From the IMG/VR virus record IMGVR_UViG_3300020029_000569, positions 28,207 to 92,206 of that record: a DNA stretch of 64,000 nucleotides; one strand, given 5' to 3'. The notes beneath the pieces are model-generated. The model was not told where the DNA came from, did not search any database, and saw nothing but the letters and a program-made list of their open reading frames with translations. This document shows, piece by piece, positions 25,701 to 54,551 of the stretch. Made by a program: the position numbers and the translations under genes. The stretch is from a virus. Lineage: Duplodnaviria; Caudoviricetes. Every line of letters starts with the position of its first letter. The first letter of the stretch is position 1.

Positions 25701-28700
25701 ATATGAAAGAATTAACAATGAAGGAGCAGTTTCAAGCACTCCCGAAACAAGCACAACAGACAGCAGTACAGCAAATGAAGAAACATCTGATGAAAAAGGA
25801 ACTAACGAAGCGACTTATGAAACAAAAGAAACAGATGTAGTTGAAAGCGCATCCAAAAATATATTTAACGAAACAAAAGAAAGCATCAGCAAAAAAATAA
25901 AATCAGTTCAAGAAAAAATATCAAAAGCGATAAATGATGGGATAAGTAAGTGGGGTTCTAAAAAAGGGTATTACGGGGAGGAATATGGAGATCAAAACGA
26001 AAAAGAAATTAATATCCCTAATTATACTTTTTCCGATAAGAGAAATGTAGAAGGTTCTGAATATAAAGAAGATTTCGATAATTATAGAAAACTAACAACA
26101 GAAGCTCAGAAGTTACATGAGTTATTGGATGCTGTGAATCCAAAATTAGAATCAGAAAGTTCAAAAAACCTAAAGAAAAGGTTAGGTAGTATTGCCTTTA
26201 ATTTTAGTTCTAATTCAGATACGGATAAAATACTTTTATCAAAAGAGGTAGATAATATTCTTAAAGAGTTAGAAAGCAGAGACGAAAATGTTGATGGAGA
26301 AAAACTGTTAAGCGATTATTACAATGCGGATGCAGATGAATCGCAAATTCAACAAATGAAAAATAATTCTGCTGAAATAACAGAGTTGATTAAATCAAAT
26401 ACGCCCACAAAACTGATTGGAATAGTACCAGAAAAAATATCAGAATCATTTGATAAACTTGCTGATAAAATATTAGCATTAAGGTCAAAAGGAGATAGCC
26501 TAAAAACTGATATTACTTTAGGACTTAAAGATGCCGCACTAACAGAAATAGCATCTCTAATAAGAGATATTGGTACAGTCGCAGACAAGGTAGCAGAGGT
26601 GATAAAAGCTATCAATAAAGTACTTTCAAAACCCGAATACAAAGACCTAAATAAAGATGAAATTAGGAATGAAGTTTTATCTGCCATTAATCCTATCAGC
26701 GATGCAAATAAAAAGTACTTAGACGGGGTAATTAAAAATATCGAAGATGGCAAAACTACTCTCGAAGAAGAAATAAAAGACATTCAAGACGACCTACCTA
26801 AAAGGTACGCTGACAAATACATAAAATACCTCAATGATAATTATACACCAAAACAAGAAAATAAAAAAGAAAAAACCGATAACACCAAAACCGAAGCCAA
26901 AGAAACAGAAGTATTAAGCGAAGAAGATAATCAAGCAGGCATAGCACATAGACTGACAGAAGAAACAAGGAAAGAATTAGGATTGCCAGAATATGAAAAA
27001 GAAACGATAACTGATGCCGAATTGGATGGTATGGCTGATGCTGAAATTAAAAACGGGTACAATATTAAAAAGTTAGTTACTAAAATGGCAAAAGGGGTAT
27101 TACCTACTGCCTTAGAACAAACTATAATGAAAAAGTATCTTGCAAGTTTGGAAGCGCAGATAGAAAAAAATCCTACCAATGAATCAATAAACGATTACAA
27201 AACAGCCGTTGAAGCGAGTGATGCAATAGGTTCAGAAATAGGTAGAAGTCTTAGAAGCAGGAGAGGTGGTATCATTAAAGATGATAGTATTGCTGCATAC
27301 TTTTTAACTGAATTGGAATCATCGGGTGTTGACGAATTAACCGAAGCGCAAAAGAACAAAGTACAAAAAGAGTTCAACGATATTCAGGAAGCGAACAGGA
27401 AATTACAAGAAAAAATAGCACAGTTAGAAATTGAAAATGCTAAAATATTGGCAGACAAGGCTATTGCTAAAGAAGCAAAAACAAAGTCTAAAAAAGAAGA
27501 TTTAAAGAAGCAAAAAGAAGATATTAAAGAATCTATCAAGCAGAAACTAAAAGAAGCAAGAAGCCAATTAAGTTCTACCCCTGTACCGTATCTGAATGAA
27601 ATATTAGCAATTACACCTGATGTTGCTAAATTAGTAAAAGTATATGCAGAAGAAGGGATTATCAAATTAGACGAAATTGTAGATAATATCCATGCTATTA
27701 TTAAAGAAAATTCAGACAACATAACTAAAAAAGATATTATAGATATTATAGCGGGTAAATACAATGAAAGAAAACAAACCCGTTCTGATATTGCAAAACA
27801 ACTTTTAGACCTTAGAACACAAGCTAATTTAGTCGGCAAATTAGAAAGTTTAGAAAATGGGATTGAACCTAAAACCGAAACTAAAAAAGTGGAAAGGAAT
27901 AAGGAAATATCTTCTTTGAGAAAAAAAATAAATGAGAATTATCTTACTAAATTATCCTCTGCAAAAAATACTATTCAAAACCAAATTGACAAACTTAGAG
28001 AAGATTTAAGCACAGGAAACTTTTTAGATAAACAAGAAAACCAAGAACTTAAATTAGACAAAGAAGCTATTGCATTAAAAGACGAATTGATTAAGTTGAA
28101 GAAAGAAAGAGATATTAGACTTTTAAGGCAACAATATCAAAACAGGTCATTAAAGCAGAAAGCAGTTGATTCTTTTTTGGAGATAATTAATGTGCCAAGA
28201 ACAATAATGAGTTCAATGGATTTTTCAGCCCCTTTAAGACAGGGGTTAATTGCAAGCATATCCCACCCCACAGTTGCATTTAAAGCATTTGGGGAAATGT
28301 TCAGGCAAGCGGTTTCTCAAAAAAGATTTGACAGGTGGTTTAATGATATTCGAGAAAGCGAGTTATTTGAAATAATGGAGAAAAGTGGTTTGTATGTAGC
28401 TGCCCCTCACGACCTTAGATTATCTGCCAAAGAAGAACAGTTTATGAATAATCTTGCAGAAAAAATACCGTTCATTGGGGGTGCAGTAAGAATACCTCAA
28501 TCAGTACCATTAATAGGGGGTAAGAAAATTGGAGGATTAATAAAAGGCAGTGAACGTGCGTATGTATCTTACTTAAATAAAATGAGAGTAGATTTATTTA
28601 CACAAGGCGCACAGGTATTAGAATCAATGGGTAAGACTTATGATAATAGTCCTAAAGAATATGAAGGTCTTGCAAGTTTTGTAAATAACTCAACAGGTCG

Positions 28701-44885: not shown

Positions 44886-45233
44886 ATGAGATTTAACCAA
44901 GCGACATTAAGTTATTTATCAGAGGTAGGCGCAGTTCTACAAAAGTCAGAATACAAAGTTACTGATGTTAATTTCGGAGAATTGAAAGCGTATGTAAATA
45001 AAGTTGATACATATAAAAAGCGAAATGGTAAGATTTGTAAAGTTGAACACCACTTTGGCAAATGGGTATCATTCCCTAAAGAATATGTCAGTTATGGCCA
45101 AAGAAAATACACTGGGGAGACTAATGATTGGTGCGTTGGAGACCGCGAAACAATTAGCGGAACAACTACTTGCAAATATCTAAATGCTGCCGCTAAAGAG
45201 CATATAGTCAAACTTTATCACAAACTGCCATAA
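44886..45233 (+). CDS. Hypothetical phage protein
   Basis: 115-aa ORF. Confidence 0.55.
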   Translation: MRFNQATLSYLSEVGAVLQKSEYKVTDVNFGELKAYVNKVDTYKKRNGKICKVEHHFGKWVSFPKEYVSYGQRKYTGETNDWCVGDRETISGTTTCKYLNAAAKEHIVKLYHKLP

Positions 45234-45281
45234 ACAAAATTTACAACTAAAACGGTAGGCCCCGTAAATGCCAGATGAGAT

Positions 45282-45692
45282 ATGAAAACATTTAAAGCAA
45301 ATCAGGAATTAATCCTATTTACGCTACCTCTTGATGCGCACTATGTAAAACCTGTATTATGTATGGGGTGTGCGGGAATAACTTGGTTAGAAAGGAAACC
45401 ATCTCACTATAATTTCATTTTTATGCCCTCTGTAAGTCCGAATAAATTATCTGATTGGCAACTACTCGGAAAACTATCAGAAATATCAGAAGATGTGGCA
45501 AAGACTATGGTGGACGACTGCCCATACTTTGCAAAATGCTGGAAGAATTACGGGTATGTAAAAACACATGAAAGCGTAAAAGAAAGAACGCGAGATACTT
45601 CATGCAACACCGCCATCGAATCGCTGCAATCAATCGCAAAGCATCTTGGATTTGAATTGACTGACAATATTTATTTACTTACAAACCAATAA
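45282..45692 (+). CDS. Hypothetical phage protein
   Basis: 136-aa ORF. Confidence 0.55.
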   Translation: MKTFKANQELILFTLPLDAHYVKPVLCMGCAGITWLERKPSHYNFIFMPSVSPNKLSDWQLLGKLSEISEDVAKTMVDDCPYFAKCWKNYGYVKTHESVKERTRDTSCNTAIESLQSIAKHLGFELTDNIYLLTNQ

Positions 45693-45693
45693 C

Positions 45694-45882
45694 ATGAACA
45701 AACAAATTAAAGATATTTTAGAAAAGCACGTTGACCTTAAATTTATAGGCAATGGTACATTCGCAGAAAACCTAAATAACGCCATCATTGATATATGCAG
45801 CAGGCAAATTGAAGTTACCGCAAAACAACTATCAAAGTACTTAAAGAAAGTAGAATTAACTTATAAAAACATCTCAAAATGA
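45694..45882 (+). CDS. Hypothetical protein
   Basis: 62 aa; overlaps the next start. Confidence 0.5.
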   Translation: MNKQIKDILEKHVDLKFIGNGTFAENLNNAIIDICSRQIEVTAKQLSKYLKKVELTYKNISK

Positions 45883-46358
45883 ACAAACAAACAAATGAGG
45901 GGCTGCGGAAGCCACTCGATAAAATAATAGCACACATGAAAAGTTGTGCAGAATATGCCGAAAAAGAAGGAGAAAACATGGATGATGTATCATGGGACAT
46001 GGAGGAGGGTATTTTAATATCATACAATGATGCTAAACTTATACTAAGCGAACTACTCAGCACTCAAAAAATGGGAGTGGAAGGGGATGGGTGGGCAGAT
46101 GATTTAAATTCGGAAGAACTGCACCCTGATAGTGTAAGGCTATTAGAAATAACATTTGAAGAACTGCGATTAAAAATGATCAAAAGCCAGAAAAAATACG
46201 GATATACAAACGGATGGCTGACCTCAAATTGGGAAGATGAATGCAGAGAACAATTAATACAGCATTTATACAAAGGCGATCCGCTTGATGTAGCTATATA
46301 CGCATTGTTTATGATTTATAGAGGTTGGTCAACTAACCCCACCAACCCGAACCGATAA
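45879..46358 (+). CDS. Phage protein with KGDPxDVA motif (MazG-like fold possible)
   Basis: C-terminal KKYGY..W..HLYKGDPLDVAIYALF. Confidence 0.5.
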   Translation: MNKQTNEGLRKPLDKIIAHMKSCAEYAEKEGENMDDVSWDMEEGILISYNDAKLILSELLSTQKMGVEGDGWADDLNSEELHPDSVRLLEITFEELRLKMIKSQKKYGYTNGWLTSNWEDECREQLIQHLYKGDPLDVAIYALFMIYRGWSTNPTNPNR

Positions 46359-46384
46359 AATGATGAATATGGAGGCGGTAAAGG

Positions 46385-47191
46385 TAACGGTCTGACGCTA
46401 TACGAAGGCAGGGAATAAGATGCACTCCCTTTCAGCCTTGCACAAATGATAAATAGACTTGTTTATTTGAAAAATTATATTTATCTTTGTGGTATGAAAA
46501 ATTGTTACGTTTACATACACAAAAAAGCAGACACGAAAGAAGTGTTTTACGTTGGAATAGGAAACCAATTAAAATATAGGAGAGCTTATCAGGTTACTGC
46601 AAATCGTAGAAGCAAAGAATGGGCAAGGGTTGTTGAGAAACACGGAGTTGAGGTTGAAGTATTTGCGGATAATTTAACAAGAGAAGAAGCTTTTGAAATA
46701 GAAATTTCTCTTATTAAAAAATATGGCAGAATAGACTTAGGCAATGGTTGTTTAGTGAATATGACAAAAGGTGGAGATGGTATTTATGAATTATCAGAAG
46801 AAGCTAAAAAACGAAATCCGAGAAATAGGGGGCAGAAAAGAGCAGAACACGCAACAAGAATTACTAAAGAAAAACTAACTGGTAGAGTTTTAAGTGAGGA
46901 AACAAAACACAAGATGAGGTTGTCTAAATTAGGTAAAAAACAATCAAAAGAGCATTTAGAAAAGAGAAAGCAAGGTTTAAAAAACACACATTATAAGGGT
47001 AGGACAATTTTAAATACTGAAACCAATGAAACATTTAACTCTATTTCAGAAGCAGCAAGGTTTTATAATATTGAAATTTCTACACTAAATAGAAAGCTAA
47101 ATGGCAAAACCAAAAACGATACGAATTTAATTATTAAATAAAGAAACGCTCACTTTAGCAGTACGCCCCTGCTTTTGTATAGCGTATGTTA
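46385..47191 (+). repeat. attC-like site 1, interrupted by a GIY-YIG gene
   Basis: TAAC ggtctg ACGCTATACGAAGGCAGGG (46395-46413) ... CCCTGCTTTTGTATAGCGT (47167-47185) at GTTA. Confidence 0.75.
46494..47141 (+). CDS. GIY-YIG homing endonuclease with NUMOD3/NUMOD1-type DNA-binding repeats
   Basis: YVYIH..FYVGIG..R..E..LVNMTKGGDG; LSEETKHKMRLSK; FNSISEAAR; own TATCTTTG box at 46482-46489. Confidence 0.88.
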   Translation: MKNCYVYIHKKADTKEVFYVGIGNQLKYRRAYQVTANRRSKEWARVVEKHGVEVEVFADNLTREEAFEIEISLIKKYGRIDLGNGCLVNMTKGGDGIYELSEEAKKRNPRNRGQKRAEHATRITKEKLTGRVLSEETKHKMRLSKLGKKQSKEHLEKRKQGLKNTHYKGRTILNTETNETFNSISEAARFYNIEISTLNRKLNGKTKNDTNLIIK

Positions 47192-47214
47192 TGGGGCGTT
47201 TTTAATCGAAATTT

Positions 47215-47496
47215 ATGAACACATACGAAATTCAAAAAGACCTTCAAAAGGCACTCGAAAACATTGATAAGAACGATTATATTCTTCGTTCACTAATCGC
47301 TCACTTGGAAGAACAATGTACTGAGGAAGAAGTAAAATTGGTTGAAGATAAAATATTTGAACTTGAACCGAAAGAATATGATAATAGGGAAGATTTCTTA
47401 GAAGACTATCAGCCAATTTTTGATTTGGTTGAATTTCCTTTCAAAGACTGCTTTCGTCTTTTTGACAAACGGCAACTTAATTGGGATGCTCTGTAA
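47215..47496 (+). CDS. Cassette A: acidic hypothetical protein
   Basis: 93 aa between GTTATGGGGCGTTTT and AAAATGCCCTATAAC. Confidence 0.7.
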   Translation: MNTYEIQKDLQKALENIDKNDYILRSLIAHLEEQCTEEEVKLVEDKIFELEPKEYDNREDFLEDYQPIFDLVEFPFKDCFRLFDKRQLNWDAL

Positions 47497-47505
47497 AATG
47501 CCCTA

Positions 47506-47598
47506 TAACGTTTTGCGGCTTTGTGTCTGTTTGCCCCTTGCACAAAGTTTCAAGTTACCACAAATGCTGATGGGGCAAATAGCACAAAACCGCTGTTA
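47506..47598 (+). repeat. attC-like site 2 (93 bp)
   Basis: TAAC gtttt GCGGCTTTGTGTCTGTTTGCCCC ... GGGGCAAATAGCACAAAACCGC t GTTA. Confidence 0.8.
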
Positions 47599-47626
47599 GG
47601 CGTATGTATTTAAAAACTTTGACGAA

Positions 47627-48286
47627 ATGATAAAGCACCCTGCAACGTACACAAATAGTTTCATTCCAAAATTTGCTGAACTGCTTATTGGATGTGAAAA
47701 CGTACTTGACATTTTCGGAGGCATTGGAAAACTTGCCCTGATAAAAGAACACGGATTTACTGGCAAAGTAATCTGTAATGAATTAGAACGAGAATGGGCG
47801 GAAACATCACCGTATAATGTTGATGAATGGCATATTGGAGATGCTGCGAATATGCAGTGGGCTGAAAGTAACTCTTTTGATGCAATATGCACAAGCCCGA
47901 CCTATGGCAATAGAATGGCTGACCACCATAACGCAAAAGATGGAAGCAAAAGAGTTACTTACAAACATTTTTTAGGGCGGGATTTGAACGAAGCTAATAC
48001 TGGTAGAATGCAATGGGGTGATAAATACCGAGAAAAGCACTTGGAGATTTACAAAGAATGTGCAAGGGTTCTAAAAAATGGTGGGCTTATGATTGTGAAT
48101 GTTTCCGACCATATCCGAAAAGGGCAAGTTGTGAATGTGGTAGAATGGCATAAGGAAGCACTAACAAATTTTGGAATGAAACTTATAGACGAAATAAAAA
48201 TTGAAACACCGAGAATGGGATTTGGGCAGAACGCTAAAAGCAGGGTGCAACACGAATGTATCTTGGTCTTTCGGCATGGCGTATAA
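47627..48286 (+). CDS. Cassette B: SAM-dependent DNA methyltransferase (N4C/N6A-type)
   Basis: LDIFGGIG SAM motif then TSPTY catalytic-like motif; stop codon is the TAA of TAAC. Confidence 0.8.
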   Translation: MIKHPATYTNSFIPKFAELLIGCENVLDIFGGIGKLALIKEHGFTGKVICNELEREWAETSPYNVDEWHIGDAANMQWAESNSFDAICTSPTYGNRMADHHNAKDGSKRVTYKHFLGRDLNEANTGRMQWGDKYREKHLEIYKECARVLKNGGLMIVNVSDHIRKGQVVNVVEWHKEALTNFGMKLIDEIKIETPRMGFGQNAKSRVQHECILVFRHGV

Positions 48287-48409
48287 CGTTTTGCGTGTAT
48301 AAGAAGTGGCGGATTAGAAATCCAAAACTTTCAGCAAACGCAGAACTTTGATAGAATGACAAAACTTTAAATTAACCAAAAAAACCGCCATTTTTTATAC
48401 ACGCTGTTA
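48284..48409 (+). repeat. attC-like site 3 (126 bp)
   Basis: TAAC gttttg CGTGTATAAGAAGTGGCGG ... CCGCCATTTTTTATACACG ct GTTA. Confidence 0.85.
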
Positions 48410-48512
48410 TAAGCTGGTGCGGTTTATTAACGCAGAATTTGAATCAAAGAACGAAACCTTTTTCTTTTCTTTTTTGAGCGATGGCAAAAATAAATTTGAA
48501 AAATTTAAAAAT

Positions 48513-49355
48513 ATGATTGATATAAACAAAAATTACAATGAAAGCAATTTAGAAACAATGGCAAAGATGCCTGATTGTTTTGTAGATTTAACGGTAACAT
48601 CACCACCGTATGATAATTTAAGAACCTATGAGAACGATGACTACTTAACTTGTGGTGAGTTTGAAGATATGGTTAAGGAGCTTTGGCGAATTACAAAAGA
48701 TGGTGGTGTAGTTGTTTGGATTGTAGGTGATTCAGTTAAAAACGGAAACGAAAGTGGGACAAGTTTTTATCATGCTTTGACTTTTAAGAAGTATGGTTGG
48801 AACTTATTTGATACTATGATTTACTTTAAAAATGGCGGTCTAAATTCAGGTGCGAATAACTCATACATTCAAAAGTTTGAGTATATGTTTGTTTTTTCAA
48901 AGGGTAAAATAAAAACAACAAACATTATTGAGGATAGACCAAACGAACACACAAAGCCACGAAAAAAGAAAAAACGAAACCCTGATGGCACATTTAGAAT
49001 ACAGGAAGTGCTAACGAAAGAACAAGGCAAGAGATATAATATTTGGTGTGTAAATACAGGAATACCGCACTCAACCCAAGACAAAATCGCTTATGAGCAT
49101 CCTGCAATATTCCCAGAAGTACTTGCTAATGACCACATAATAAGTTGGAGTAATGAAGGTGATTTGGTTTACGACCCTTTTATGGGAAGTGGAACAACTG
49201 CTAAAATGAGTATTCTAAATAATAGAAATTGGATTGGAAGCGAAATATCTTCTGAATATTGTGAGATTATTGAAGAACGTATTAAAAAAGCGTGGGAAGA
49301 AAAAAGAAAAGAAAAAGATTTACAAGCAGGAACTCTATTCGGAGACGAAATGTAG
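48513..49355 (+). CDS. Cassette C: beta-class N4C/N6A DNA methyltransferase
   Basis: TSPPY, HPAIFP, DPFMGSGTT; likely ATG at 48513. Confidence 0.92.
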   Translation: MIDINKNYNESNLETMAKMPDCFVDLTVTSPPYDNLRTYENDDYLTCGEFEDMVKELWRITKDGGVVVWIVGDSVKNGNESGTSFYHALTFKKYGWNLFDTMIYFKNGGLNSGANNSYIQKFEYMFVFSKGKIKTTNIIEDRPNEHTKPRKKKKRNPDGTFRIQEVLTKEQGKRYNIWCVNTGIPHSTQDKIAYEHPAIFPEVLANDHIISWSNEGDLVYDPFMGSGTTAKMSILNNRNWIGSEISSEYCEIIEERIKKAWEEKRKEKDLQAGTLFGDEM

Positions 49356-49365
49356 CACTTGCTTA

Positions 49366-49435
49366 TAACGTTAAAACTACACGCTGGTTGCCTATTTATT
49401 CCAATGCTTCGGCAACTAGCTTGTAGTGATTGTTA
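49366..49435 (+). repeat. attC-like site 4 (70 bp)
   Basis: TAAC gttaaa ACTACACGCTGGTTGCC ... GGCAACTAGCTTGTAGT gatt GTTA. Confidence 0.8.
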
Positions 49436-49542
49436 GTAGCTGTTTATCTAATTTACATTTATTTTGAAAATATTTGTAATTTTATTAGGTTATACAAAAA
49501 TTAGTTGTATATTTGTATAACAAAATCAAACAAATACAAATT

Positions 49543-49767
49543 ATGAAAACATCAACTTACACTTACCAATTTACAAACGGAACTTTTACAATCACAAAAG
49601 GAATAAGAACAAAATTTGATTGGTTTGTTGAAGTAGAATTAAATCCAATTGAATGTGATGGATATGTTGAAAAGAGATTTATAAAACTAGACCAAAATTT
49701 ATTTTTAACTTTAAAAAATGCAAAAGAAACCACAATTAAATTACTAACTAAATTTAACTTATTATAA
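49543..49767 (+). CDS. Cassette D gene 1, hypothetical
   Basis: ATG at 49543 after a TATATTTG box at 49508-49515. Confidence 0.6.
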   Translation: MKTSTYTYQFTNGTFTITKGIRTKFDWFVEVELNPIECDGYVEKRFIKLDQNLFLTLKNAKETTIKLLTKFNLL

Positions 49768-50180
49768 TGAAACTAATTCCAATGACTAATTTTGTTTTCC
49801 AGCAAAAAGAAAAATTAACAGATATTTACGGTAATGCAAAAGATGTGTTAGAAATTGACAAATCAAGAATAAATTTTATTCACAGCGTTTCAAATTACGC
49901 AAAGTTCCTAAATGAAACAATTTCACTAGGAATGCTAGTTCCTTGTGATGAAAAAGGAATTGAAATAATTATAGATACTGAGCACCGAGAAGATAGCACA
50001 AGTTGGTCACCTGATGAAATTGAACAATATAAAAAAGCTGAAACCGAAATTTATTTAAAAACAACAATAGATTTAGATACTGCTAAATTTCACGTTAAGC
50101 AAAAAAGAACAATTGAATATTTTACCTCTTTTAATATTGAAATATCCGAGTATGCTATTAAAAAATTTCAATTAGAATAG
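49767..50180 (+). CDS. Cassette D gene 2, hypothetical phage protein
   Basis: 137 aa; MKLIPMTNFV..NYAKFL..LGMLVPCDE. Confidence 0.65.
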   Translation: MKLIPMTNFVFQQKEKLTDIYGNAKDVLEIDKSRINFIHSVSNYAKFLNETISLGMLVPCDEKGIEIIIDTEHREDSTSWSPDEIEQYKKAETEIYLKTTIDLDTAKFHVKQKRTIEYFTSFNIEISEYAIKKFQLE

Positions 50181-50182
50181 TT

Positions 50183-50350
50183 ATGCAAAGACAATCAATA
50201 ATAGTATTTATTCAAGGCGATAGAATAGAAACGTATGGAAACTTAAAAAAGTGCTGTGAATGTGAGAACTTGAAATATCACACTTTAGCACGTTTAAAAT
50301 TTCCAATTCGGCTAAATGATGTAGTTATACACAAAACGCTCTTTAAATAG
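50183..50350 (+). CDS. Cassette D gene 3, 55-aa putative DNA-binding protein
   Basis: Hand translation MQRQSIIVFIQGDRIETYGNLKKCCECENLKYHTLARLK... Confidence 0.55.
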   Translation: MQRQSIIVFIQGDRIETYGNLKKCCECENLKYHTLARLKFPIRLNDVVIHKTLFK

Positions 50351-50354
50351 CTAC

Positions 50355-50481
50355 TAACGTATCGGTGCTATACGATGTGGCGGATTTTTAGTACTAAAGT
50401 CCAATACGAAGCACCAAAGTTGAATTTAAAATAAATGTTTAATCGAATCACGTCAGCCGCCATATTGTATAGCACTTGTTA
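50355..50481 (+). repeat. attC-like site 5 (127 bp)
   Basis: TAAC gtatcg GTGCTATACGATGTGGCGG ... CCGCCATATTGTATAGCAC tt GTTA. Confidence 0.85.
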
Positions 50482-50512
50482 GCGGATGCCGTTTCTTCAC
50501 AATAATTTCAAA

Positions 50513-50749
50513 ATGGAATACAAAGCACAAGAATTAAAAAAAGATTTAATTACAAAGCGTTGCATTGATAACGATATGACAATGGATGAAGCTTGTAAAG
50601 AAATAGGAATTTCAAAAGCTACATTATCAAGGTTGGAAAAGTCAAAACTGCCCGATGTCGAAACTCTTGGTAAGGTATGCACTTGGTTAGGGACAGAGCC
50701 AAATAAATACTTTGTCATTGTTCGCAAGCGTCAAGACGGTTTCCGCTAA
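50513..50749 (+). CDS. Cassette E: XRE-family HTH regulator
   Basis: MTMDEACKEIGISKATLSRLEKSKLPDVETLGKVCTWL; stop in TAAC. Confidence 0.85.
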   Translation: MEYKAQELKKDLITKRCIDNDMTMDEACKEIGISKATLSRLEKSKLPDVETLGKVCTWLGTEPNKYFVIVRKRQDGFR

Positions 50750-50871
50750 CGGTCGAGTATTGCCGAAGGTGGGGCATTATACCACTAATGTTTAATTGAA
50801 ATACAAAACTTGATAATATGAAAAATGTTGATTTGAAAAACGAAACCCCCACTTGCGGCAATACTTTGTTA
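50747..50871 (+). repeat. attC-like site 6 (125 bp)
   Basis: TAAC ggtcg AGTATTGCCGAAGGTGGGG ... CCCCACTTGCGGCAATACT tt GTTA. Confidence 0.85.
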
Positions 50872-51207
50872 TGCCCCGTTTTGGGTCAAACTTACAACTA
50901 CTTTGATGACGGGAAGATTAGACCAAGTAGAAGAATGGAAGTTGTTATTACAGAAATTATCCCATTTAATGAAATTGATGCAGAAACTTTGGAATCTTGG
51001 AAAGAAGAAGTTGAAGAATGTAATTGGCTTTACGCTAAAGAAACTGATTTCTTTGTAAAGGGTGATTTAAAAGTTTCTGATGATAAGATTGAAAAGATAA
51101 TTTTTGTAAGAACTATCAATAATAATGATGGTTGGTTTAGTCTTGGATGGTGGGGAGGTAGATTAGATATTGACGGTTCGTTGAACGCTCTGTTAAATGG
51201 GGCATAA
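50818..51207 (+). CDS. Cassette F: hypothetical protein (start codon inside site 6)
   Basis: 129 aa; stop in TAAC. Confidence 0.7.
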   Translation: MKNVDLKNETPTCGNTLLCPVLGQTYNYFDDGKIRPSRRMEVVITEIIPFNEIDAETLESWKEEVEECNWLYAKETDFFVKGDLKVSDDKIEKIIFVRTINNNDGWFSLGWWGGRLDIDGSLNALLNGA

Positions 51208-51330
51208 CGTAAAAGCATTGCTGTCAGTGGCGGAAATTGAAGCACAAAAGTTAAATTATGCAGAAAAGTTTATTTGAAAATATACAGTTGAATGAAGTAC
51301 ATCAGCCGCCATTGCAGCAATGCAGTGTTA
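51205..51330 (+). repeat. attC-like site 7 (126 bp)
   Basis: TAAC gtaaaa GCATTGCTGTCAGTGGCGG ... CCGCCATTGCAGCAATGC agt GTTA. Confidence 0.85.
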
Positions 51331-52271
51331 GCCGCAGTACTTTGTTATTAGGTGATTGCTTAATTGAAAGCGATAAAATTGAAAGCGGAACAGTTGATTT
51401 GATATTGACTGATTTACCTTATGGAAATATGGGAATGGAAGGTACAAATCACGGAATGACAGGGAAAGTTAGCTGGGATGAAACTATAAACCCAAGTGAT
51501 TTATTTGTGGTTGCGGATAGAATTTTGCGAAAAAACGGCAAAATGATTTTGTTTAGCCAAGAACCATATACAAACGAATTGATAAGTAAGGCAATACCTA
51601 ATTTACCATATAACTATAAGGCTTTTTGGGAGAAAGACCATTTTGCCAACGCTTTAAATGCTAAAAAAGCAATGTTAAATTATGCAGAAGAAATACTTAT
51701 ATACAGCAAAAACAACCCAAAACACGACTTTGAAGGATTACACCCATTGAGAGTATACTTTTTAACTCAAAAAGAAGAAAGTAAATTAACCGATAGCGAT
51801 ATAAAAAAAATACTTGGTAACGGAATGGGTGGGCATTACTTTACTAATGGCAGTCAGTTTTGTTTACCTACTTTGGCTAATTATGAAAAACTACAAACTA
51901 CTGGATTTTTTAAGCGTGATTGGAATGAATTAAAGCAAATAGATACGGAATACCGAACCGAACTATTAAAGCAAATGAATGACAAATACCCAAGCACCTT
52001 TAACCTATGGGAAGGCAACAAATACAAAAGCAACATCCTGAAATACAAAAAGGATTACAACGGCTACCACCCCACACAAAAACCTGTTTTATTGCTCGAA
52101 GATTTAATCAAGACTTTCAGTAATGAAAATGATTTAGTAGTTGATTTGACAATGGGAAGCGGCTCAACTGGTGTAGCCTGTCGAAATACAAACAGAAGAT
52201 TTATCGGCATAGAGAAAGATGAAAAGTATTTTGAGATTGCAGTACGGAGGGTGTCTGCGTATTGCGGCTAA
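51258..52271 (+). CDS. Cassette G: beta-class N6A DNA methyltransferase (start inside site 7)
   Basis: TDLPY, HPTQKP, DLTMGSGSTG; stop in TAAC. Confidence 0.92.
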   Translation: MQKSLFENIQLNEVHQPPLQQCSVSRSTLLLGDCLIESDKIESGTVDLILTDLPYGNMGMEGTNHGMTGKVSWDETINPSDLFVVADRILRKNGKMILFSQEPYTNELISKAIPNLPYNYKAFWEKDHFANALNAKKAMLNYAEEILIYSKNNPKHDFEGLHPLRVYFLTQKEESKLTDSDIKKILGNGMGGHYFTNGSQFCLPTLANYEKLQTTGFFKRDWNELKQIDTEYRTELLKQMNDKYPSTFNLWEGNKYKSNILKYKKDYNGYHPTQKPVLLLEDLIKTFSNENDLVVDLTMGSGSTGVACRNTNRRFIGIEKDEKYFEIAVRRVSAYCG

Positions 52272-52388
52272 CGGTTTCGGGCTTGGCGAAGTGGCTGAAC
52301 CCGAAGCTAAACTGGAACACAGAACTTTAAAATTAAGAACGAATGATTGATAGAATTACCGAACAGCCATTTCGCCAAACCCGTGTTA
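52269..52388 (+). repeat. attC-like site 8 (120 bp)
   Basis: TAAC ggttt CGGGCTTGGCGAAGTGGCTG ... CAGCCATTTCGCCAAACCCG t GTTA. Confidence 0.85.
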
Positions 52389-53149
52389 TGTGCAGGGCGG
52401 TTGATAACCTTGAACTCCTTTTGTCGCAACCTGATGAAAGTGTAGATTTGATTTACTGCGACATTCTTTATGGAACTGGTAGAAATTTCGGTGATTACCA
52501 AGACTTAAAACCGATTAGAAGCGAAATTGAAGCACATTATTTGCCACGATTAAAAGAAATGCACCGAGTATTAAAACAAAACGGCTCAATTTATTTGCAA
52601 ATGGATTATAGAATATCCCATTGGATTAGGTTGATAATGGATGATATTTTTGGGTATGATAATTTTGTAAATGAAATTATATGGTGCTACACTATGCCAA
52701 ACAACAACAAAAGGAGATTTAATGCAAAACACGATAATATATTTTCTTACGCAAAAACTAAAGACTATACATTTAATTGGCAAAGCGTATTAACAGATTA
52801 TTCCGAAAGTAGTAAAGAAAGAGGTAAGTATGGAAGTAACTCAATGATGGGTAAAGCCGACAGCCCTTTATCTAAAAACGGAGGTAAAATTATGGAAGAT
52901 TGGATGGTAATACACACACTTAAAGGCAATTCAAAAGAGTATTCAAAATACCCAACCCAAAAGCCAAAAGCATTAATTGAACGAATTATAAAAGCAAGTT
53001 CAAACGAAGGAGATACGGTTGCAGATTACTATTTAGGTTCAGGAACGACAGCAGTAGTTTGTAAAGAATTAAACCGAAATTTTATAGGTTGTGACATTAA
53101 CCCAAAGGCTATTGAAATAACGAAAGCTCGATTGAATGGTGGTCAGTAG
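52343..53149 (+). CDS. Cassette H: beta-class DNA methyltransferase with variant catalytic motif
   Basis: LIYCDILY (in place of DPPY), YPTQKP, DYYLGSGTT. Confidence 0.85.
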   Translation: MIDRITEQPFRQTRVMCRAVDNLELLLSQPDESVDLIYCDILYGTGRNFGDYQDLKPIRSEIEAHYLPRLKEMHRVLKQNGSIYLQMDYRISHWIRLIMDDIFGYDNFVNEIIWCYTMPNNNKRRFNAKHDNIFSYAKTKDYTFNWQSVLTDYSESSKERGKYGSNSMMGKADSPLSKNGGKIMEDWMVIHTLKGNSKEYSKYPTQKPKALIERIIKASSNEGDTVADYYLGSGTTAVVCKELNRNFIGCDINPKAIEITKARLNGGQ

Positions 53150-53275
53150 CATTGCACATAACTACTCGCTTGCTCTGTAAAACTACCTATATAAGTACTA
53201 TATGGAGTTATAGGCGCACCAATGGTTTGTTAATGACTATCACAATTATTCCGTAAATCCGCAAAAATTTAAACA

Positions 53276-53524
53276 ATGTCAAAATACCACAATTTAAGAT
53301 TAGAGTTTTCAGAACCATTTTCAAAGACTGACCTTTCATTTCATAAGGAATTTAAAAAAGCAAGTAGTAGGACAGATAGTGAAGATGAAATAAGGAAGAT
53401 ATTAGTAGAAGTACTAAAGGAGTATGCTAACAGTAAGGCAAAGACTAAAGGAGGGAGGTTAGGTAGGTTCTTTGCAAGGATAGGGGCTATTGTATTGCCT
53501 TTTGTTAGTTTTAAAAAGAAGTAA
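53276..53524 (+). CDS. Hypothetical protein with amphipathic C-terminus
   Basis: 82-aa ORF before the terminator. Confidence 0.55.
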   Translation: MSKYHNLRLEFSEPFSKTDLSFHKEFKKASSRTDSEDEIRKILVEVLKEYANSKAKTKGGRLGRFFARIGAIVLPFVSFKKK

Positions 53525-53550
53525 GTTTTAGGGTATTATCCCTTAATGTA

Positions 53551-53582
53551 AAAAGCCTACCCCGTTATTGGAGTAGGCTTTT
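53551..53582. terminator. Bidirectional terminator at the convergence of the two transcription arms
   Basis: AAAAGCCTAC-cccgttattgga-GTAGGCTTTT. Confidence 0.8.
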
Positions 53583-53602
53583 CTGCTTTTGGATTGGGGG
53601 TG

Positions 53603-53788
53603 TTATATTCCCTCAGTATTGACCCCTAATTCGGGAGTGCTTACTTCTCCGTTACCCCTATCGTCTATGGATATGTTTATGATAGTATCGTCAGGTTTCT
53701 CTCCGTGACTTAACATTACTACTCTTAGAAGGTCATGTAGTTCACCTATGGTAGTAGATACTGTGTTGGTGTTATGGATTATTGTCAT
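53603..53788 (-). CDS. Hypothetical protein
   Basis: 61-aa ORF, last gene of the leftward cluster. Confidence 0.5.
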   Translation of the reverse strand: MTIIHNTNTVSTTIGELHDLLRVVMLSHGEKPDDTIINISIDDRGNGEVSTPELGVNTEGI

Positions 53789-53794
53789 GGTTAA

Positions 53795-54034
53795 TTAGTT
53801 TTTGATTTTTTTATTATATTTTCTAATAGCTGATTTTTGATTAAGTGCAACAATACATTCACCTTTAATCCAAAACTCTTTTAGTCCTTTAGCTTTTAAA
53901 CGTTCAGATCGTAGGCGTTCTTTTTGTTCATCAGTTAATGGAGTATATTCACTATCATCATCATAATGCTTTCCACTCATAGGTGCTGCCATAGCCATCA
54001 TTGCAAGTATTGGCAATAGATTTTTCGTATTCAT
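53795..54034 (-). CDS. Hypothetical protein
   Basis: Likely ATG at 54034; IVALNQKSAIRK C-terminus. Confidence 0.55.
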   Translation of the reverse strand: MNTKNLLPILAMMAMAAPMSGKHYDDDSEYTPLTDEQKERLRSERLKAKGLKEFWIKGECIVALNQKSAIRKYNKKIKN

Positions 54035-54035
54035 T

Positions 54036-54551
54036 TTACTTACTTTTAAAGCTAATAGATTCAATATTAGAATAGTCAATAACACTATCTCCGTATAGGG
54101 TGGTATTGATTTCTAATTGTTTATGGTCTGTATCGTTATTGGTAACGGTACAGTCGTGTAGTTTGCTTTTGTCCTTCATAGTTATACGGTTTACTATCTG
54201 AGTGGGTTGTAATCCTCTTAATACATAGAAGATGTTTTGTTGCATGATGTCCTTTTGCATTTCTAATTTTTTAGTGTAGTATTTTTGATTTTTAATTCTG
54301 TTTGATTCGGGGGTGGTGTATATTTTAGATCCTCCTTTTTCTTCAAGAAGTTTTCTATTTGATTCTAACTTATCAGGGTTTACAATGTAATACACAGTCA
54401 TAGGACTTACCCCAAACTCTCTTGCTGTTGCCCTTAGTCTGTTGGTAGCCTTATACATTAAGATTATAGCCTGTTTATCCTTGTCGTTTATCTTTACCCT
54501 TCCGTCCTTGTCACGGTCTGAAATAGTCTTGTGCGTCCCTTTATTTTCCAT
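54036..54551 (-). CDS. HTH-containing DNA-binding protein
   Basis: LRATAREFGVSPMTVYYIV. Confidence 0.65.
   Translation of the reverse strand: MENKGTHKTISDRDKDGRVKINDKDKQAIILMYKATNRLRATAREFGVSPMTVYYIVNPDKLESNRKLLEEKGGSKIYTTPESNRIKNQKYYTKKLEMQKDIMQQNIFYVLRGLQPTQIVNRITMKDKSKLHDCTVTNNDTDHKQLEINTTLYGDSVIDYSNIESISFKSK

Follow-up and report, generated by a model that had tools for sequence, protein, structure and literature searches.

A stretch of 64,000 nt of viral DNA (here called the window), which forms the 3′ 64 kb (positions 28,207 to 92,206) of the 92,206-bp IMG/VR virus record IMGVR_UViG_3300020029_000569 (79% complete according to CheckV), was found to carry an array of genes separated by hairpins that resemble integron recombination sites. 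Judging from the sequence, this is probably an integron-like phage array of reversed polarity, in which an ATG in the loop of a hairpin starts the gene behind it. The carrier is a phage of a Flavobacteriia (Flavobacterium-like) host. Between approximately 46.4 and 53.2 kb every gene lies on the plus strand, and the imperfect hairpins between the genes each have a TAAC box at the left end and a GTTA box at the right end. A site scanner, which works as a simple energy filter for TAAC...GTTA with pairing arms, detected seven strong sites in the window, all of them inside 47.5-52.4 kb.

Loop ATGs and leaders of ORFs F, G and H

Three consecutive sites, all on the plus strand, are followed by genes whose reading frame extends back into the hairpin. 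These are the attC-like hairpin of site 6 (50747-50871, with TAAC at 50747-50750, GTTA at 50868-50871 and a loop ATG at 50818), site 7 (51205-51330; TAAC 51205-51208, GTTA 51327-51330, loop ATG 51258) and site 8 (52269-52388; TAAC 52269-52272, GTTA 52385-52388, loop ATG 52343). The arm duplexes have energies of -33 to -36 kcal/mol, the folds of sites 6, 7 and 8 reach z-scores of -4.2, -4.0 and -3.6 against shuffled sequences, respectively, and the ATG lies in the unpaired centre each time. From each of these ATGs an open reading frame (ORF) runs through the 3′ arm and GTT into the gene, as seen in the folds and in the ORF translations. ORF F (50818-51207, plus strand, 129 aa), for which no Pfam family was matched, has a leader of 16 codons plus 2 nt with the phase ttG TTa and a body that begins at TTA 50869. 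ORF G (51258-52271, plus strand, 337 aa) has a leader of 23 codons and ORF H (52343-53149, plus strand, 268 aa) one of 14 codons, and in both GTT is read as a codon. G and H are DNA methyltransferases that match the whole PF01555 profile (positions 1-220, above the curated cut-off) with 113.5 and 180.7 bits, respectively. All three are the longest ORFs of their frames. The first ATG of G past GTT is found 102 nt downstream, beyond the D-L-P-Y motif. An earlier sequence-only reading of the window had proposed that the hairpins supply start codons and N-terminal leaders to the genes downstream, and our analysis reproduced its starting points: the three loop ATGs and their frames, the leader sequences, the two phases of GTT and the position of the first in-cassette methionine of G past the catalytic motif. 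An AlphaFold2 model of G, built on a 12-sequence alignment, was uninformative on the leader, with a mean predicted local distance difference test (pLDDT) score of 57.6 and low values even in conserved parts.

Frame conservation across related arrays

Cultured Baltic phages of Flavobacterium (genera Muminvirus and Lillamyvirus) carry arrays of the same kind, as do many IMG/VR contigs, which were fetched via homologues of G, F and H. The related loci (cited below by L numbers) contain 218 non-identical sites, and two or more sites occur in 50 loci. By length the sites fall into two classes, one near 90 nt and one near 125 nt. Sites of the first class have a short loop, and the gene behind them has its own start; sites of the second class have an extra loop that contains an ATG. 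An ORF of at least 80 codons crosses the right (GTTA) box in 103 of 155 long sites and almost never in short ones. An open loop ATG was in frame with this ORF in 85 of the 103 sites (83%), compared to 16 of 206 cases (8%) in the other two frames, which served as the control. Such a tabulation of loop-ATG frame against downstream ORF frame over many arrays had been suggested as a check by the sequence-only reading, and its outcome supports the proposal.

Clustering of these sequences gave 30 leader clusters and 38 body clusters, which are joined in 46 distinct fused combinations. A single phase is kept in all but two of the multi-member leader clusters, and frame agreement was seen in 21 of the 38 body clusters. 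Between ATG and GTTA, 10 of 24 gaps are 3 or 6 nt long, as against 5 of 63 gaps upstream of the ATG. This comparison was made within leader clusters, because length differences modulo 3 over loosely related sites mixed phase classes and were uninformative. Seven body families without a start codon of their own were seen more than once; all 39 of their junctions are in frame, and not a single out-of-frame (off) junction was detected among the 39.

In many long sites without a fused ORF, no more than about 35 nt separate the end of the loop ORF from the ATG that the gene itself possesses. This upstream-ORF type, non-fused state is exemplified by site 5 (50355-50481, plus strand), a long hairpin with a loop ATG at 50435. 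Its loop ORF has 15 codons and ends at the TAG of GTTAG, 3 nt before ATG 50486 of the gene ahead of site 6, which encodes a small helix-turn-helix protein according to Pfam. The arrangement looks like translational coupling or termination and reinitiation.

Initiation context and natural N-termini

As judged by base frequencies, the loop ATGs bear an initiation signature of the Flavobacterium type, namely A at -12 and -13. With one ATG context per leader cluster, A was found at -13 in 80% and at -12 in 83% of the contexts, compared to 48% A over whole loops and 33-35% at internal ATGs of phage genes. Ribosome profiling and reporters in F. johnsoniae revealed that A at -3, -6, -12 and -13 together with low secondary structure promotes initiation, and that the ribosomes of this organism ignore Shine-Dalgarno sequences (PMC6847099). 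The loop is the sole unpaired A-rich stretch near the gene. Since ribosomes of the host group do without Shine-Dalgarno pairing and favour unstructured A-rich leaders, the loop would be their natural landing place. In most leader clusters a conserved AACTT(A/T)AA-like motif precedes the loop ATG by 12-22 nt (in the window at 50795-50817, 51235-51257 and 52315-52342). It may belong to the initiation region or serve as a promoter element or protein-binding site.

By alignment with homologues that are solved or stand outside cassettes, the cassette bodies are trimmed to about the natural first codon. Relatives of F outside arrays (L081-L087) have a methionine exactly at the position of the cassette's TTA after the right-box G. 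In G, the V-D-x-I...P-Y motif starts at body residue 23, counted from GTT, which is also its position in 5hek, a homologue of solved structure. No ATG, GTG or TTG occurs from GTT to the conserved G-D-C motif in nine of 13 G-type cassettes, and the V-S-G-S-T family likewise has no start codon ahead of its conserved N-terminal motif. H-type genes occur in both designs, either with their own ATG about 39 nt past the site (L001 4459; P12002L gp36) or as a fusion to a loop ATG. Frame conservation, the 46 leader-body combinations, the initiation context and the bodies that begin at the natural first residue all point to the hairpin as the source of the start codon and of a leader of 14-26 residues.

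Cassette borders and polarity

The sequence-only reading had followed the integron model, in which the upstream site is a property of the previous cassette, and had concluded that expression would depend on the neighbour and that shuffling could act as a translational on/off switch. The borders of the cassettes contradict this assignment. Three isolate pairs differ by one cassette each, with flanking blocks that are 97.7 to 100% identical (mostly >99.9%): a unit of 506 nt is gained or lost between mumin6-1 and mumin6-3 (L183/L184), one of 439 nt between sniff9-1 and sniff9-2 (L185/L186) and one of 342 nt between snork6-1 and snork6-2 (L187/L188). The three pairs are cases of recent cassette gain or loss in cultured phages. 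All breakpoints fall within stretches of 6-12 identical nt whose last letters are TAAC(G), located at two consecutive left boxes or at the terminal half-site, and the hairpin moves together with the gene that follows it. The mobile unit thus consists of left arm, loop, right arm, GTTA, gene and closing TAA.

Homology blocks over all loci show the same pattern at their right ends, 78 of which lie at the left box and 7 at the right box; for left ends the numbers are 120 and 93. Among 40 classes of cassettes and block ends, 12 run from left box to left box and only one runs from right box to right box as in the classical arrangement. In the window, cassette F as a mobile unit (50750-51207, plus strand) begins with the C of the left box in site 6 and ends with the TAA that opens the left box of site 7, and its homology blocks in L076, L077, L078 and L080 cover 50747/50759-51209. 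The homology block of cassette G extends from 51205 to about 52273. Cassette H (52272-53161, plus strand) extends up to the terminal half-site and is common to at least 15 loci from 52261-52269 on; blocks that reach its 3′ end stop near 53162 (e.g. in L089, L092 and L113), and the remaining ones are broken up by a divergent middle part. The 3′ end of the array (53150-53162) consists of a lone left-box half-site, TAAC 53159-53162, which is followed by T and has no hairpin behind it. The array of snork6-1 (L187) is closed by a terminal half-site of the same kind.

Two further observations concern polarity. Upstream ORFs (n = 197) end at the TAA of the next left box in 69 cases, at most 30 nt before the site in 116 cases and run into the site in one case. 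At one and the same folding threshold, 238 sites passed as sense strand and 155 as antisense strand, and for only 5 was the antisense strand the sole one to pass. Because the isolate indels and the ends of homology blocks fall at TAA|C, the hairpin is the 5′ part of its own cassette and the leader is normally inherited with the gene. By its borders, each cassette is a self-contained translation unit with a leader that is normally its own. The proposed on/off switch does not fare better, as all 39 junctions of start-less bodies are in the productive frame.

Exchange of leaders at the right box and a motif in G-type leaders

Exchange at the right box also occurs, as indicated by heads resembling site 8 on unrelated bodies and by leader clusters with several bodies. 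Relatives of site 8 with about 88-90% identity (L001 5190-5319, L015, L092 and L140) head a different methyltransferase family, and the homology ends exactly at GTTA. Eight leader clusters are joined to 2-5 body clusters each. These GTTA swaps are the rarer event, and the frame is kept in every one seen. They may reflect a second cleavage position, use of the other strand or short-homology recombination. One part of the neighbour idea therefore survives, in that a leader can be foreign to its gene by way of a GTTA swap, but this is not the main route.

G-type leaders contain a Q-x-x-L-F motif in 12 of 13 cases, located 1 to 5 residues from the ATG in the loop-encoded part. In the window it reads Q-K-S-L-F (51261-51275, plus strand). 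Q is encoded by CAG or CAA, the residues between Q and L vary with S or D often in third place, and the motif is kept while the rest of the leader diverges (also in L001, L007, L008, L012-L018 and L035). A C-terminal Q-x-x-L-F was found in 4 of 82 other large cassette proteins. The motif resembles the consensus QL[S/D]LF of bacterial beta-clamp-binding pentapeptides (PMC9690074) and is a candidate for a sliding-clamp (beta-clamp) binding motif; the phage record contains no clamp gene of its own. Its conservation suggests that the peptide itself matters. It is conceivable, if rather doubtful, that hairpin heads are portable, phase-fixed coding modules, some with a functional peptide, that the loop of G-type sites encodes a clamp-binding motif which tethers the enzyme to the replisome, and that occasional GTTA crossovers move heads between unrelated enzymes. 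If true, this would amount to an exon-shuffling-like exchange of N-terminal tags via phage site-specific recombination.

Proposed mechanism and alternative explanations

We propose the following scheme. The polarity of the array would be the reverse of that of classical integrons, with each gene preceded on its 5′ side by its own folded site and crossover in the left TAA|C box of the sense strand. In long sites (about 125 nt) the A-rich loop would carry the translation initiation region and the ATG, and from there the frame would stay open across the 3′ arm and GTTA into a body that has been cut back to roughly its natural first codon. Transcription would proceed rightward, giving a sense-strand mRNA of the array in which the hairpin refolds, aided by G-U pairs of the sense strand, and exposes the A-rich loop. 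Ribosomes that initiate at the ATG in the loop would then melt the 3′ arm, and the resulting protein would carry a leader of 14-26 residues with a sequence mostly set by the stem.

Several observations weigh against this scheme. About a third of the long sites have no fused ORF, and each of the three ORFs in the window has an alternative start within the cassette, namely TTG 50881 in F, TTG 51342 in G and ATG 52388 in H, the last one inside GTTATGT at the right box. The related loci were gathered through homologues of F, G and H and are thus a related sample enriched for three families, with clustering as the sole control. Furthermore, no match to a tyrosine (PF00589), HUH (PF01797) or serine (PF00239) recombinase was obtained in the 92-kb record, which is 79% complete.

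The alternative starts could mean that functional proteins begin inside the cassettes and that the loop ATG opens a helper frame, which loads ribosomes and melts the stem like ORF-11 of attI1, with the fusion being incidental or a minor isoform. H-type homologues with their own start and the many non-fused long sites whose loop ORF ends close to the gene's ATG fit such an explanation, the latter resembling the termination and reinitiation described for attI1 and attC (PMC8876359). A helper ORF, however, needs no match of frames, and the frames match in 83% of cases; the alternative codons lie in or next to the stem and without A-rich context, as read from the sequence; most G-type cassettes and the V-S-G-S-T family offer no start codon before the conserved N-terminal motif; and the conserved Q-x-x-L-F of G leaders suggests a role for the peptide. 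We therefore regard initiation of the functional proteins within the cassettes as unlikely. The fusions might also be an artefact of annotation, as G+C-rich arms are poor in stops, A+T-rich loops contain chance ATGs, ORF lists always give the longest frame, and the GenBank annotators of the Muminvirus isolates took the first ATG. The control frames reject this explanation, with arms open to a loop ATG in only 8% of cases, and neither the frame agreement in body clusters nor an initiation context specific to loop ATGs would be expected from it; we consider it extremely improbable.

The classical layout assumed by the sequence-only reading, in which a gene is followed by its own site, crossover occurs at G|TT, the previous cassette provides the leader and translation is turned on or off by shuffling, can also claim some of our observations. 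The bases immediately ahead of the next TAAC are complementary to the 5′ end of the body, which fits crossover at either box. Near-identical sites stand before unrelated bodies with homology ending at GTTA, as in the relatives of site 8, and eight leader clusters have several partners. Yet the three natural indels are located at TAAC and not at GTTA, right ends of blocks favour the left box by 78 to 7, only 1 of 40 classes runs from right box to right box, and start-less families contain no out-of-frame junction. This layout consequently appears quite improbable, and we prefer an array of reversed polarity with genes that are probably started by loop ATGs.

Other features of the array

The remaining sites of the window, all on the plus strand, include both short and long hairpins. 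Site 2 (47506-47598) is a short hairpin of 93 nt and is followed by a gene with an ATG of its own at +32. Site 3 (48284-48409) is a long hairpin; the frame of its loop ATG is closed by a stop after 4 codons, and the methyltransferase gene downstream has a start codon of its own at 48513. Site 4 (49366-49435) is a short hairpin of 70 nt and precedes a cassette (49436-50354, up to site 5) with three small ORFs instead of one, at 49513/49543-49767, 49767-50180 and 50183-50350. A GIY-YIG endonuclease that splits site 1 had been proposed for the region 46385-47191, and the ORF located there (46446-47141) gave no Pfam match at E<=0.01. An Rfam scan of 45000-54500 at E<=1 returned no attC-type family and only two chance matches to snoRNAs. 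A scan of bacterial genomes for relatives of G yielded 14 loci, mostly on tiny contigs of metagenome bins, and no array next to an integrase.

Significance and comparison with known systems

The integron cassette is taught as a promoterless gene followed by attC, with translation signals separate from the site. The arrays described here are widespread in phages and appear to have the opposite layout, in which one and the same sequence serves as recombination site and as initiation region with the first codons of the gene. This would account for the expression of start-less anti-restriction methyltransferases in hosts without Shine-Dalgarno pairing. Gene callers and integron finders would mis-orient such cassettes. 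The arrangement offers a testable model for the co-evolution of structure-specific DNA sites and coding sequence, and cultured phage-host pairs exist, with Muminvirus and Lillamyvirus on Flavobacterium sp. LMO6 and LMO9. Our literature searches found no paper on start codons in attC loops or on reversed cassette polarity in phages.

Stem-loops at points of gene exchange are known from T4-like phages, where promoter/stem-loop motifs (PeSLs) flank variable genes in hyperplastic regions (PMC2839356, PMC4122927). Like these, the hairpins described here are small intergenic stem-loop modules at gene-exchange points. PeSLs, however, are composites of promoter and terminator that are exchanged by homologous recombination and contain no start codon or coding sequence, whereas the breakpoints in our arrays lie in one box of 4-7 nt.

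More features are shared with integron attC sites and with clusters of attC sites lacking integron-integrases (CALINs). Among these are hairpins 60-130 nt long, imperfectly paired and with AAC and GTT core boxes, that stand between promoterless genes of the same direction, a cargo rich in DNA methyltransferases, and complementary cassette ends. All seven window sites and the 218 related ones have the inverted core boxes closing an imperfect hairpin of about 57-141 nt that define such sites, and at least two sites in the same orientation occur within a few kb between promoterless genes. CALINs have been described in virulent phages, including one bearing methyltransferases in a Polaribacter phage, of which one attC site was recombined by IntI1 (Qi et al. 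2023, PMC9892861); start codons are not mentioned in that paper. In Polaribacter phage P12002L we found only short sites and genes with their own starts, as read by eye (the scanner found none there). In attC the site lies 3′ of the gene, crossover takes place at G|TT of the right box, and extrahelical bases together with an unpaired spacer direct recombination to the antisense strand. The arrays studied here depart from this, since the site stands 5′ of the gene and is inherited with it, breakpoints and block ends fall at the left TAAC, the crossover is assigned to the left box of the sense strand, which is also the strand that folds better, the start codon lies in the loop, and the record contains no IntI. 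The arms have mismatches and a one-sided bulge of 3-5 nt beside the left core; no canonical bulged extrahelical bases were seen in them, and the sense strand is the more stable one.

With respect to translation, the closest parallels come from integrons themselves. ORF-11, ORF-17 and ORF-18 of attI1 and short ORFs of attC help cassettes without an initiation region, with a stop that is often the core TAG (PMC8876359). The likeness to ORF-11 is a frame with its own initiation region inside a recombination site that extends across the crossover or core box (compare site 5); the likeness is functional only, and our sites are not attI sites. The attI1 ORFs encode separate short peptides that act by coupling, depend on Shine-Dalgarno sequences and belong to the one attI of each integron. 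In our arrays, by contrast, most long sites contain such a frame; it usually continues into the cassette protein, and its context is A-rich and lacks a Shine-Dalgarno sequence. Furthermore, aac(6')-Ib (aacA4) and some other cassettes borrow a start codon from upstream sequence (PMC8876359), and as in the phage arrays a start-less cassette gene thereby gains an N-terminus from the sequence in front of it. However, the fusions of aac(6')-Ib are sporadic and follow attC loss, whereas those of the phage arrays appear to follow a regular design in which the donor is the cassette's own site.

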